Assembly (NCBI RefSeq): GCF_044324785.1
Contig: NZ_CP172127.1
Source: Escherichia coli
GTDB taxonomy: Bacteria; Pseudomonadota; Gammaproteobacteria; Enterobacterales; Enterobacteriaceae
Strand: one strand, 5' to 3'
Length of the DNA stretch: 64,000 bases
Shown: piece after piece, positions 8,366 to 12,291 of the stretch
Layout: each line of letters opens with the position of its first letter
Numbering within the stretch: the first letter of the stretch is position 1
Made by a program: the position numbers and the translations under genes
The notes under the pieces: generated by a model
The model's database searches: none
Told to the model about the DNA's origin: nothing
Seen by the model: only the letters and a program-made list of their open reading frames with translations

Positions 8366-9520
8366 TTACTTCAGACCGGCAGCATCGCGCAGCAGCTGCG
8401 CTTTGTCGGTTTTTTCCCACGGGAAATGTTCGCGACCAAAGTGACCGTATGCTGCGGTTTCTTTGTAGATCGGGTGCAGCAGATCCAGCATCTGAATCAG
8501 ACCGTATGGACGCAGGTCAAAGAACTCACGTACCAGCAGAGTCAGTTGTTCAGAAGGCACTTTCTCGGTACCGAAAGTTTCCACCATGATAGAGGTCGGT
8601 TCAGCCACGCCGATTGCGTAGGAAACCTGAATTTCACAACGATCGGCCAGGCCAGCAGCAACGATGTTTTTCGCGACATAACGTGCTGCGTACGCTGCGG
8701 AACGGTCCACTTTTGATGGATCTTTACCAGAGAATGCACCACCACCGTGACGTGCCATGCCGCCGTAGGTATCAACGATAATTTTACGACCAGTCAGACC
8801 GCAGTCACCCATCGGGCCACCGATAACAAAACGACCGGTCGGGTTGATGAAGAATTTGGTGGCAGAAGTCAGCCATTCAGCCGGCAGAATCGGCTTGATG
8901 ATCTCTTCCATTACCGCTTCTTGCAGCGATTTCTGGTCGATTTCTTCAGAGTGCTGAGTGGAAAGCACGACAGCATCGATACCAACGATTTTGCCGTCGT
9001 CATACTGGAAAGTCACCTGGCTTTTCGCGTCCGGGCGCAGCCACGGCAGAGTGCCGTTTTTACGCACTTCAGCCTGACGCTGTACCAGACGGTGTGCATA
9101 GGTGATAGGCGCTGGCATCAGCACGTCGGTTTCATTGGTTGCGTAGCCAAACATCAGACCCTGGTCACCCGCGCCCTGTTCCAGCGGATCGGCACGGTCA
9201 ACGCCCTGGTTGATGTCAGGAGACTGTTTGCCGATAGCGCTCAGAACCGCACAGGAGTTAGCGTCAAAGCCCATGTCGGAATGTACATAGCCAATTTCGC
9301 GAACGGTGTTACGGGTGATCTCTTCGATGTCTACCCAGGCGCTGGTGGTGATTTCGCCGCCAACTAAAACCATGCCGGTTTTTACGTAGGTTTCGCAAGC
9401 AACGCGTGCTTTCGGATCCTGTTCGAGGATCGCGTCTAAAACGGCATCAGAGATTTGGTCAGCAATTTTGTCAGGATGCCCTTCAGAGACGGACTCGGAC
9501 GTAAAAAGGTGTTTTGCCAT
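8366..9520 (-). CDS. metK: S-adenosylmethionine synthetase
   Basis: Start at [25 protein letters not shown] (384 aa). Confidence 0.97.
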
Positions 9521-9575
9521 ATTTAATATCACCTAAAGAGAATTTGGTTAGCTCAAACTGTTGTGTGGATTTTCT

Positions 9576-9827
9576 GTGGTAGCGGATCCTACCACGACTC
9601 TGCAGGTTAAAAACACTGGCAGTCTGAGTGTTAATCGGTATGGATGGATTAACATCTGGATGGCTATTTTAGGTCAGTTCTTCACCCAATTTCCACTTTT
9701 TTTTGAATCGTGTCTCATTCTGTTAAAAACGTGGCTGGAAATTTTTCCTGACAATGCTGGCATTCTGCGTATTTATCTTTTGCAATTTTCTGCCATTGTG
9801 GGGTATAAAACGCGGCGCGCGGCTTAA
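9576..9827 (+). CDS. small hypothetical ORF (83 aa from GTG) in the metK-speA divergent region; possibly the K-12 yqgD annotation
   Basis: Open frame only; K-12 annotates an 83-aa y-gene near here; no conservation evidence available. Confidence 0.2.
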
Positions 9828-10039
9828 ATAAAAAGCACACGACGTTTCTTTCGTGTTGCCACTTCCAGCCGGGTTGAAATCAGAGTTTTGGCTTGTGGGT
9901 TCGTCTTAACAGGCGGCCGTGGAGGTGATACGAAATAATGAACCGTTGTCTGCTGCTTAACCTGTCTCACCGTTCTGGTGAAGATTCGTTCCCCGCACTC
10001 TGCATCTCTGCTTTGCATACCTGCCGATGTTATACCCAT
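9824..10039 (-). CDS. yqgC: small hypothetical protein YqgC
   Basis: 71-aa ORF; length and position match the K-12 yqgC annotation between metK and speA. Confidence 0.4.
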
Positions 10040-10096
10040 CTCGGCGCTTCTCAGGATTCAAGAGCTGGTTACAGTTACTGAGGACTGAACAAGGGC

Positions 10097-10120
10097 GCTC
10101 TTGTAAAAACAAGAGTTTTC
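10097..10120 (+). terminator. terminator-like hairpin upstream of yqgB/speA
   Basis: ctcttg-taaaaa-caagag followed by ttttctcgtggtttc. Confidence 0.4.
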
Positions 10121-10174
10121 TCGTGGTTTCGCCGAACTGTCACACTTACGTTCGGTTATGTGCTTAATAATGTT

Positions 10175-10306
10175 ATGAAAAAGAAACCGGTTGCGCAGTT
10201 GGAGCGTCAGCATTCACTGCTGGAAAATCCATGTGCTTATGGGTTGTTATCGCAGTTCCAGGCTGCGATAGTCGTTAACTGTTTTACACTTAATAAAATA
10301 ATTTGA
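10175..10306 (+). CDS. yqgB: small protein YqgB (43 aa) immediately upstream of speA
   Basis: ATG 10175; translation [43 protein letters not shown]; stop 8 nt before the speA ATG. Confidence 0.65.
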
Positions 10307-10314
10307 GGTTCGCT

Positions 10315-12291
10315 ATGTCTGACGACATGTCTATGGGTTTGCCTTCGTCAGCGGGCGAACACGGTGTACTACGCTCCATGCAGGAGGTTGCAATGAGCTC
10401 CCAGGAAGCCAGCAAGATGCTGCGTACTTACAATATTGCCTGGTGGGGCAATAACTACTATGACGTTAACGAGCTGGGCCACATTAGCGTGTGCCCGGAC
10501 CCGGACGTCCCGGAAGCTCGCGTCGATCTCGCGCAGTTAGTGAAAACTCGTGAAGCACAGGGCCAGCGTCTGCCTGCACTGTTCTGTTTCCCACAGATCC
10601 TGCAGCACCGTTTGCGTTCCATTAACGCCGCGTTCAAACGAGCGCGGGAATCCTACGGCTATAACGGCGATTACTTCCTCGTTTATCCGATCAAAGTTAA
10701 CCAGCACCGCCGCGTGATTGAGTCCCTGATTCATTCGGGCGAACCGCTGGGCCTGGAGGCCGGTTCCAAAGCGGAGTTGATGGCGGTGCTGGCACATGCT
10801 GGCATGACCCGTAGCGTCATCGTCTGCAACGGTTATAAGGACCGCGAATATATCCGCCTGGCATTAATTGGCGAGAAGATGGGCCACAAGGTCTATCTGG
10901 TCATTGAGAAGATGTCAGAAATTGCCATTGTGCTGGATGAAGCAGAACGTCTGAATGTCGTTCCTCGTCTGGGCGTGCGTGCACGTCTGGCTTCGCAGGG
11001 CTCGGGTAAATGGCAGTCCTCTGGCGGGGAAAAATCGAAGTTCGGCCTGGCGGCGACTCAGGTACTGCAACTGGTTGAAACGCTGCGTGAAGCCGGGCGT
11101 CTCGACAGCCTGCAACTGCTGCACTTCCACCTCGGTTCGCAGATGGCGAATATTCGCGATATCGCGACAGGCGTTCGTGAATCCGCGCGTTTCTATGTTG
11201 AGCTGCACAAGCTGGGCGTCAATATTCAGTGCTTCGACGTCGGCGGCGGTCTGGGCGTGGACTATGAAGGCACCCGTTCGCAGTCCGACTGTTCGGTGAA
11301 CTACGGCCTCAATGAATACGCCAACAACATCATCTGGGCGATTGGTGATGCGTGTGAAGAAAATGGTCTGCCGCATCCGACGGTAATCACCGAATCGGGT
11401 CGTGCGGTGACTGCGCATCACACCGTGCTGGTGTCGAATATCATCGGCGTGGAACGTAACGAATACACGGTGCCGACCGCGCCTGCAGAAGACGCACCGC
11501 GCGCCCTGCAAAGCATGTGGGAAACCTGGCAGGAGATGCACGAACCGGGAACTCGCCGTTCTCTGCGTGAATGGTTACACGACAGCCAGATGGATCTGCA
11601 CGATATTCATATCGGCTACTCTTCCGGCACCTTTAGCCTGCAAGAACGCGCATGGGCTGAGCAGCTTTATTTGAGCATGTGCCATGAAGTGCAAAAGCAG
11701 CTGGATCCGCAAAACCGTGCTCATCGTCCGATTATCGACGAGCTGCAGGAACGTATGGCGGACAAAATGTACGTCAACTTCTCGCTGTTCCAGTCGATGC
11801 CGGATGCGTGGGGGATCGACCAGTTGTTCCCGGTTCTGCCGCTGGAAGGGCTGGATCAAGTGCCGGAACGCCGCGCTGTGCTGCTGGATATTACCTGTGA
11901 CTCTGACGGTGCTATTGATCACTATATTGATGGTGATGGTATTGCCACGACAATGCCAATGCCGGAGTACGATCCAGAGAATCCGCCGATGCTCGGTTTC
12001 TTCATGGTCGGCGCATATCAGGAGATCCTCGGCAACATGCACAACCTGTTCGGTGATACCGAAGCGGTTGACGTGTTCGTCTTCCCTGACGGCAGCGTAG
12101 AAGTAGAACTGTCTGACGAAGGCGATACCGTGGCGGATATGCTGCAATATGTACAGCTCGATCCGAAAACGTTGTTAACCCAGTTCCGTGATCAAGTGAA
12201 GAAAACCGATCTTGATGCTGAACTGCAACAACAGTTCCTTGAAGAGTTCGAGGCAGGTTTGTACGGTTATACCTATCTTGAAGATGAATAA
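10315..12291 (+). CDS. speA: biosynthetic arginine decarboxylase
   Basis: Start at [49 protein letters not shown] (658 aa). Confidence 0.96.

Follow-up and report, generated by a model that had tools for sequence, protein, structure and literature searches.

In speFL-speF-potE (orf34 in Salmonella), the gene for a decarboxylase of the polyamine pathway is preceded by a long enterobacterial leader, which contains a translated upstream open reading frame (uORF). Transcription terminates prematurely in this leader in a Rho-dependent manner, the C-terminal part of the uORF product is conserved, and ornithine-sensing arrest is a feature of SpeFL. In uof-fur and rseD-rpoE, which are listed as leader peptides, the stop codon of the uORF lies next to or over the start of the main gene; the position is conserved and the peptide sequence is of little importance. 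The mechanism of uof-fur and rseD-rpoE is translational coupling. In trpL, pheL and pyrL, a hairpin with a U-rich tail lies shortly downstream of a small leader open reading frame (ORF). In mdtU-mdtJI, a 3′ end was found downstream of a validated uORF together with Rho-dependent read-through, and the termination was shown to depend on translation of the uORF and to be relieved by spermidine (Adams et al. 2021). The subject of this report is the leader of speA, the entry to the arginine route to putrescine, in 64,000 nucleotides of Escherichia coli DNA (contig NZ_CP172127.1, assembly GCF_044324785.1). The whole of this stretch is called the window, and positions are counted from its first letter.

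The speA leader shares all the features of speFL-speF-potE named above except ornithine-sensing arrest; for speA, ribosome arrest and a ligand would be hypothetical. In contrast to speFL, it contains two uORFs in series, yqgG and yqgB, and the second adjoins the main gene. Neither YqgG nor YqgB is known to resemble SpeFL, although no sequence comparison was made. As for mdtU, the same study observed Rho-dependent read-through for speA and a 3′ end that lies beyond a validated uORF; for speA, it is Rho dependence that was shown. The yqgB stop adjoins or overlaps the speA start site, as in uof-fur and rseD-rpoE. However, the yqgB region also holds highly conserved RNA helices, and the dependence of SpeA on yqgB is putative. 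With trpL, pheL and pyrL the speA leader has in common the small leader ORF and the close hairpin with a U-rich tail. In contrast to these, its termination is Rho-dependent, no 3′ end is listed at the tail, and neither a covarying anti-terminator nor a run of regulatory codons was seen; three of the four defining features of an intrinsic leader-peptide attenuator were not found. Three features of a uORF-gated Rho attenuator are present, namely a translated uORF, Rho termination downstream of it and a tract of rut-like (Rho utilization-like) composition, which ribosomes on yqgG could cover. Ligand-dependent stalling on yqgG would be a fourth, and the protein-level constraint on its C-terminal DSRAG motif is the sole, indirect evidence for it. 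The closest systems are speFL-speF and mdtU-mdtJI (uORF-gated Rho attenuation) and coupled uORFs such as uof-fur, and the speA leader looks like a combination of both. We propose that Rho termination gated by yqgG, together with coupling of yqgB to speA, forms the mechanism of this leader, and we hold this proposal as a whole with modest, somewhat better than even, confidence. The elements that carry the argument are as follows.

9938-10081, plus strand: yqgG (uORF1, annotated as b4784), 47 codons
9950-10054, plus strand: C-rich, G-poor tract inside yqgG, candidate rut site (in 60-nt windows, C 33-35%, G 17-18%, C/G 1.9-2.0)
10092-10123, plus strand: hairpin 1, with a core stem 10097-10104/10109-10116, a U tract 10116-10119 and a lower stem in which AGGG pairs with UUCU
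10175-10306, plus strand: yqgB (uORF2, annotated), 43 codons and TGA
10315 onward, plus strand: speA, with the ATG at 10315-10317 and the Shine-Dalgarno sequence GAGG at 10305-10308

The region 9817-10314 is the conserved leader of the speAB mRNA (about 498 nt). A structured 5′ domain, yqgG, hairpin 1, hairpin 2, yqgB (with hairpin 3) and speA follow one another in this order. Gene positions are those of the RefSeq annotation carried over to the window, and MG1655 coordinates were converted by the formula window = 10315 + (3085911 - coordinate), the speA start 3085911 being window 10315. The forward primer of the speA-lacZ fusion with the "entire 5′ UTR" (untranslated region) begins at 9817, and the cloned segment ends at the base before the ATG (Adams et al. 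2021). The leader 5′ end is therefore about 280 nt upstream of hairpin 1. A sequence-only reading of positions 10040-10314 had proposed that a terminator-like hairpin ahead of yqgB could couple speA expression to translation or termination in the leader, and had named a speA transcription start downstream of the hairpin, with no read-through transcripts, as the observation that would speak against this; the experimental 5′ UTR begins far upstream instead. The hairpin and yqgB were correctly listed there, and yqgG, the uORF adjoining the hairpin, and the leader start at about 9817 were overlooked.

Termination in this leader has been studied experimentally. A transcriptional lacZ fusion to the speA 5′ UTR (9817-10314) and northern signals respond to rhoR66S, and premature Rho-dependent termination of speA was concluded (Adams et al. 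2021, eLife). The peak of bicyclomycin read-through is at MG1655 3086055 on the minus strand, which corresponds to window 10171 (Rho score 3.69, p = 8.7e-20; Supplementary file 2 of that study); this position is approximate, because it was computed from 800-nt windows. The dominant 3′ end in Term-seq is at window 10372 (MG1655 3085854), 57 nt into speA, with a Rho score of 3.09 and the flag "uORF" (Supplementary files 1 and 3), and a further 3′ end is at window 9931 (MG1655 3086295). In contrast, the curated Term-seq tables list no 3′ end at the U tract of hairpin 1 (MG1655 30860xx-30861xx) in LB at an optical density (OD) of 0.4, LB at OD 2.0 or M63. The same authors listed yqgB-speA as an uncharacterised candidate regulatory uORF, and a yqgG-yqgB-speAB transcript was reported in the preprint of their study.

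For comparison, we collected 80 loci from Enterobacteriaceae and Erwiniaceae by scanning with SpeA residues 1-250, and aligned speA positions -400 to +3 from 31 Enterobacteriaceae genera (alignment A1). YqgG, which matches Pfam PF23505, was found in 64 of 79 loci. YqgG-SPA was detected, with initiation peaks, whereas YqgC was not (Weaver et al. 2019). The protein has a constant core of 44 codons, which ends in ...SQDSRAG, and in other species the stop codon follows 0-6 codons past the Ala-Gly. In the YqgG alignment (A2), M1 and D40 do not vary at all, and N2, R30, A43 and G44 hardly vary. The ratio of nonsynonymous to synonymous divergence (dN/dS) in the C-terminal 17 codons is 0.32, as compared with 0.75 and 1.28 in the off-frames. 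The conserved Arg is coded by AGA, AGG, CGG and CGA, and the Ala by all four GCN codons. It is the protein sequence of the C-terminal DSRAG motif that is conserved; in the N-terminal half, a signal of protein-level constraint like that of the C-terminus was not seen in codon-position variability. The tract 9950-10054 is the sole stretch of the leader in which C exceeds G, and it lies 60-120 nt upstream of the Rho read-through peak. Its composition makes it a candidate rut site. Thus, yqgG is likely a better candidate than yqgB for the sensing uORF.

Hairpin 1 lies between the two small ORFs, beginning 16 nt past the yqgG stop and upstream of yqgB. It consists of GCUCUUGU (10097-10104), an AAAA loop and ACAAGAGU (10109-10116), followed by UUUUCUCGUGG. 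The sequence-only reading had placed the hairpin with its U tract at 10097-10120, and we confirmed this, with the stem at 10097-10116 and the U tract at 10116-10119; a terminator consensus scan likewise returned 10097-10116, where a 4-nt loop closes a stem of 8 pairs and the tail reads UUUUCUC. The fold of the 36-nt segment has an energy of -11.6 kcal/mol, as compared with -4.3 +/- 1.9 kcal/mol in shuffled sequences (z = -3.93; none of 200 shuffles was as good). RNAalifold recovers the hairpin from alignment A1. In the extended stem, 8 of the 12 pairs show double-sided changes that preserve pairing, and 93.5% of cells are paired across the 31 genera. For example, CUCUUG/CAAGAG is replaced by CUCCUG/CAGGAG, CUCUUAU/AUAAGAG or CUUCUGA/UCGGAAG. 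A search of the individual genomes showed that the hairpin is at a fixed distance from speA across Enterobacteriaceae and that its tail, UUUUCUCGUGGUUUC, is almost invariant. In Erwinia, Pantoea and Mixta, a hairpin with other stems (CUCUCAG/CUGAGAG, GACCUUC/GAAGGUU) is present at the equivalent place, without a U tract. When the seven helices of the leader structure were considered together, 95.7% of cells were paired, in contrast to 38-53% in controls slid by 1-3 columns, and 16 pairs were double-changed versus 5-9 in these controls. The covariation score was 0.172, which none of 500 shuffles reached, versus about 0.05 in the slid controls. Hairpin 1 is a genuine covarying RNA helix just 3′ of yqgG.

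The second uORF has the size and place given to it before, with 43 codons and an end 8 nt before the speA ATG. Its TGA (10304-10306) overlaps the speA Shine-Dalgarno sequence. The yqgB AUG is invariant, and so is AAGAAACC just after it. In all 60 Enterobacteriaceae loci in which the anchor was found, no stop interrupts the yqgB frame before the speA start region, whereas the other two frames contain 2-6 stops. The stop is inside the speA Shine-Dalgarno sequence in 35 loci and, after 1-nt indels, over speA codons 2-3 in the other 25. The informative fact is that the frame never closes earlier, not which stop serves. Three different insertions, of 20, 51 and about 128 nt, lengthen the frame to 55-91 codons and leave it open; in the other frames, they carry stops. 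In the remaining loci, mostly Erwiniaceae, a uORF of 28-50 codons ends at a TGA over speA codons 2-3 in 18 of 19 cases. Its start differs from that of yqgB, being typically GUG or UUG at -145 with GGAG upstream, and its sequence is unlike yqgB. It should be mentioned that column frequencies give a probability of ORF openness of 0.78 per sequence for yqgB; this calculation is circular and its support weak, and we relied on the insertions and the Erwiniaceae counterparts instead. At the amino acid level, no purifying selection on YqgB was detected by dN/dS or codon-position entropy. The median dN/dS is 0.78; the off-frames have 0.95 and 0.64, and the neighbouring speA has 0.03. Codon periodicity is absent (entropy 0.64, 0.72 and 0.63 bits at the three codon positions). 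The median synonymous divergence (dS) of yqgB is 0.32, in contrast to 0.73 in speA, and this low value points to constraint at the nucleotide level. The conserved blocks of yqgB map to hairpin 3 (10242-10280) and to GAAACC (10183-10188). An open frame up to the speA start combined with an unconstrained peptide suggests translational coupling. Thus, judged from the sequence comparison, yqgB looks like a cis-acting positional uORF coupled to speA rather than a gene for a protein with its own function.

The observations on hairpin 1 bear on two other explanations of it. That the hairpin is a functionless chance inverted repeat might be argued from the terminator pattern, which by itself is at chance level (2 sites in 1.1 kb versus 1.3 expected in shuffles). 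However, the fold energy, the fixed position across genera and the number of double-changed pairs, far above that in the slid controls, are not those of a chance repeat; this explanation is already refuted by the covariation counts, and we regard it as almost certainly wrong. A more serious alternative is classic intrinsic attenuation of the trpL, pheL and pyrL type, in which hairpin 1 and its U tract would terminate transcription independently of Rho and would be governed by translation of yqgG. The terminator-like shape, the covarying stem with its near-invariant tail and the short distance from the yqgG stop (only about 9 nt in many species) agree with this idea, and a terminator was also predicted in the speA 5′ UTR of Shewanella (2009 computational study). 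In contrast, no curated 3′ end lies at the U tract under the three growth conditions, and the termination measured in the leader is Rho-dependent. The core stem is AU-rich (3 G-C of 8 pairs, -8.7 kcal/mol, tail UUUUCUCG) and passes a simple terminator scan as a weak candidate, and Erwiniaceae keep the hairpin but not the U tract. The anti-terminator candidate, CAAGAGC at 10059-10065 (the Ser-Arg-Ala codons of yqgG) with the 5′ arm of hairpin 1 (10097-10103), is paired in 80% of cells, but its covariation equals that of shuffles and slid controls, and 23 of the 31 sequences fail to form one of its pairs; this is the one obvious partner, and the search for others was not exhaustive. Furthermore, YqgG has no conserved tandem regulatory codons in alignment A2. 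We therefore consider intrinsic attenuation improbable. The general idea of the sequence-only reading, that the leader couples speA expression to termination or translation, agrees with the published Rho data and with the open yqgB frame, whereas the intrinsic terminator that it implied is not supported.

A further explanation concerns YqgB itself. If YqgB is a trans-acting small protein, as its names "acid stress response protein" and "virulence promoting factor" imply, its adjacency to speA would be mere operon organisation, and hairpin 1 would be an mRNA-stabilising or intercistronic element. In favour of this, YqgB matches the curated families PF11036 (113.3 bits, cut-off 24) and NF033844 (90.1 bits, cut-off 35). 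According to the citations in later papers, its synthesis was validated and its deletion causes acid sensitivity, and it was treated as a drug target in a 2026 study. Nevertheless, the dN/dS value of yqgB is like that of both off-frames, and synonymous sites in yqgB have diverged less than half as much as those in the adjacent speA. The conserved blocks, which are located on RNA helices, do not vary at any of the three codon positions, the length of the product ranges from 43 to 91 residues through the insertions, and the Erwiniaceae counterparts match in position but not in sequence. When yqgB was deleted in Salmonella, arginine decarboxylase and the mRNAs of speA and speB fell (2026 study), as a cis effect would predict. 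Moreover, overexpression of YqgB in an arrest-peptide screen produced a heat-shock and aggregation signature, not an arrest signature. We consider a trans-acting YqgB unlikely, although less so than intrinsic attenuation.

In the mechanism that we favour, yqgG-gated Rho termination with coupling of yqgB to speA, ribosomes occupying yqgG would decide whether Rho gains access to the C-rich tract. Rho would then release the polymerase in the region of hairpin 1, hairpin 2 and the yqgB start. The hairpins and the U-rich tail would be pause or structural elements rather than an autonomous terminator, and hairpin 1 is most likely a conserved element of this kind in a Rho-dependent attenuator. Transcripts that escape would be translated at yqgB, which would shield the distal leader from Rho, and the yqgB ribosomes would be passed to the speA start by termination-reinitiation (translational coupling). 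The lower speA and speB mRNA and enzyme levels of the yqgB deletion in Salmonella are indirect evidence for such coupling. Polyamines, arginine or agmatine may be the physiological signal, but these are guesses. What we infer is how the parts of the leader are linked, what hairpin 1 does and which signal acts; that termination depends on Rho and that the two uORFs are translated comes from the literature. For yqgB, the latter means that it was counted among experimentally validated small ORFs (Adams et al. 2021) and that its start codon was detected in vitro by INRI-seq.

Several points weigh against this mechanism. The published experiments on speA cover Rho dependence, and the connection to uORF translation is drawn here; the Rho peak is only approximately placed. 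The yqgB start was not seen by retapamulin profiling in vivo. The effect of the yqgB deletion in Salmonella could be a polar artefact, a phenotype of YqgB deletion has been reported, and the literature handles YqgB as a protein. Two conserved TGA triplets account in part for where the stop falls, at -9 or over codons 2-3. Both hairpin 3 and the GGUUUC:GAAACC helix, which involve yqgB, are invariant and hence have no covariation support. In addition, the mean probability that the speA Shine-Dalgarno sequence is unpaired, over 60 loci, is 0.28 versus 0.27 with shuffled upstream sequence, and it is lower in only 28 of them. Masking of the Shine-Dalgarno sequence by yqgB sequence was convincing in E. 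coli but is not conserved, and we rejected it. Because masking is unsupported, coupling would need termination-reinitiation, which is therefore the likelier form of yqgB-speA coupling.

A more specific version of the mechanism can be considered, in which the two uORFs form a relay. YqgG (44 codons, ending in D-S-R-A-G) would be a metabolite-responsive arrest peptide that gates the loading of Rho, and YqgB would be a coupling uORF, not a protein effector. The metabolite sensed might be a polyamine, agmatine or arginine, and a 5′ domain that occludes the yqgG Shine-Dalgarno sequence might cooperate. We regard this version as speculative and rather unlikely in its full form. If it is true, the phenotypes of yqgB deletions and the status of YqgB as a drug target would be explained by lost expression of SpeA.

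The elements of the speA leader are real, conserved and already partly described. Because the elements are annotated and Rho attenuation of speA has been published, the leader is not a discovery. What is new is the covariation support for the hairpins, the view that YqgB is not a constrained protein but a uORF serving coupling, and the indication that the sensor is likely yqgG. The view of YqgB calls for caution, since a small protein annotated as an acid-stress protein and recently used as a colistin-adjuvant target may be a cis-acting uORF. If so, deletion phenotypes would reflect reduced arginine decarboxylase, not the loss of a small protein.

Other features of the leader and its surroundings are as follows.

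9520, minus strand: end of metK (RefSeq annotation)
9576-9827: yqgD (RefSeq annotation)
9780-9817, plus strand: putative promoter of the speA leader, with TTGCAA (9780-9785), an 18-nt spacer and TATAAA (9804-9809)
9824-10039, minus strand: yqgC, antisense to the speA leader and yqgG (RefSeq annotation)
9859-9925, plus strand: conserved 5′ domain, with near-invariant CCACUUCC (9859-9866), which is complementary to the yqgG Shine-Dalgarno region GGAGGUG (9921-9927)
10125-10188, plus strand: possible long-range helix, GGUUUC (10125-10130) with GAAACC (10183-10188, yqgB codons 3-5), which encloses hairpin 2 and the yqgB AUG
10132-10155, plus strand: hairpin 2, CCGAAC/GUUCGG, with 4 of 6 pairs double-changed
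10242-10280, plus strand: hairpin 3 inside yqgB, GGUUGUUAUCGCAG ... CUGCGAUAG ... AACU, with almost no variation at any of the three codon positions

In the 5′ domain, CCACUUCC is paired with the yqgG Shine-Dalgarno sequence in the minimum-free-energy fold of the full E. coli leader (z = -2.67). Both this block and GGAGGUG are invariant or nearly so in the alignment of the 5′ domain (A3), and without variation there is no covariation. RNAalifold did not recover the anti-Shine-Dalgarno helix from this gappy alignment. The modelled pairing suggests that the 5′ domain may be a structured, sensor-like element which gates the initiation of yqgG. The first 120 nt or so of the leader (9817-9937) are conserved across genera, with the invariant blocks CCACTTCCAGCCGGG, GCTTTGGCTT and GTGGAGGTGATAC, and had no match in Rfam; a scan of 9300-10600 at E <= 1 matched no family. 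The 3′ end at 9931 is 7 nt before the yqgG AUG, in its ribosome-binding region, and would correspond to a stable 5′ leader fragment of about 115 nt, which may arise by processing or termination. Inside yqgG, a small hairpin at 9968-9980 (CACC-GUUCU-GGUG, codons 11-15) has double changes in all 4 pairs among the 31 genera, and the residues that it encodes are not conserved.

The double changes in hairpin 2 include CUGAAC/GUUCAG and CCGGAC/GUCCGG. The GGUUUC:GAAACC helix was predicted both by RNAalifold and by the fold of the full leader, and 99.5% of cells are paired. In hairpin 3, more than 99% of cells are paired, and the sole variation is from C-G to U-G or from G-C to G-U. The motif UGUUUUACA occurs twice in the genus consensus, once just 5′ of the yqgB AUG (10160-10177) and once after hairpin 3, 5′ of the speA Shine-Dalgarno sequence (10280-10289). 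No recognisable Shine-Dalgarno sequence precedes yqgB itself. An in-frame GUG at 10160, 5 codons 5′ of the yqgB AUG, aligns with the GUG/UUG start in Erwinia. The insertions in yqgB were found in some Enterobacter and Citrobacter-like genomes (our loci L027, at about 2350-2480, L039, L022, L038 and L040), between hairpin 3 and the speA Shine-Dalgarno sequence. Their ends are inverted (TATACCC...GGGTATA), all are at the same TTTTA/CAC site, and they resemble a small palindromic mobile element.

A 1.2-kb segment around the speA leader is 100% identical to many E. coli chromosomes and is present in 5,425 of 5,426 complete genomes. The length of the metK-speA spacer (about 790 nt) is held, and its blocks are recognisable, across Enterobacteriaceae. 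The promoter block upstream of the leader is conserved in alignment A3, and we infer that TTGCAA and TATAAA are the promoter hexamers of the speA leader. At the other end, TTGAGGTTCGC(T)ATG at the speA start is invariant in all 31 genera aligned. The promoter scan found none between hairpin 1 and yqgB. The only promoter-like site in 10040-10314, at 10275-10302, was rejected, since the resulting mRNA would be without the speA Shine-Dalgarno sequence. Hairpin 1 was also considered, and rejected, as an element of the minus strand, where it is not followed by a T tract and yqgC begins downstream of it. The conservation of yqgC in tblastn is merely the reverse complement of the conserved leader, and neither ribosome density nor a tagged protein was observed for it (Weaver et al. 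2019). Probably, yqgC is not a gene. The inverted repeat ACACGAAAGAAACGTCGTGT (9837-9856) scores as a minus-strand terminator at the 3′ end of yqgC. Read on the plus strand, the same repeat gives a stem-loop near the start of the speA mRNA, about 20 nt from its 5′ end, and changes in the stem are apparently compensatory in alignment A3. Finally, a possible 7-bp hairpin, GUUUGCC...GGCGAAC (10336-10358), is located 14 nt before the Term-seq 3′ end at 10372. This arrangement is consistent with a Rho-terminated transcript that exonucleases trimmed back as far as a protective stem.

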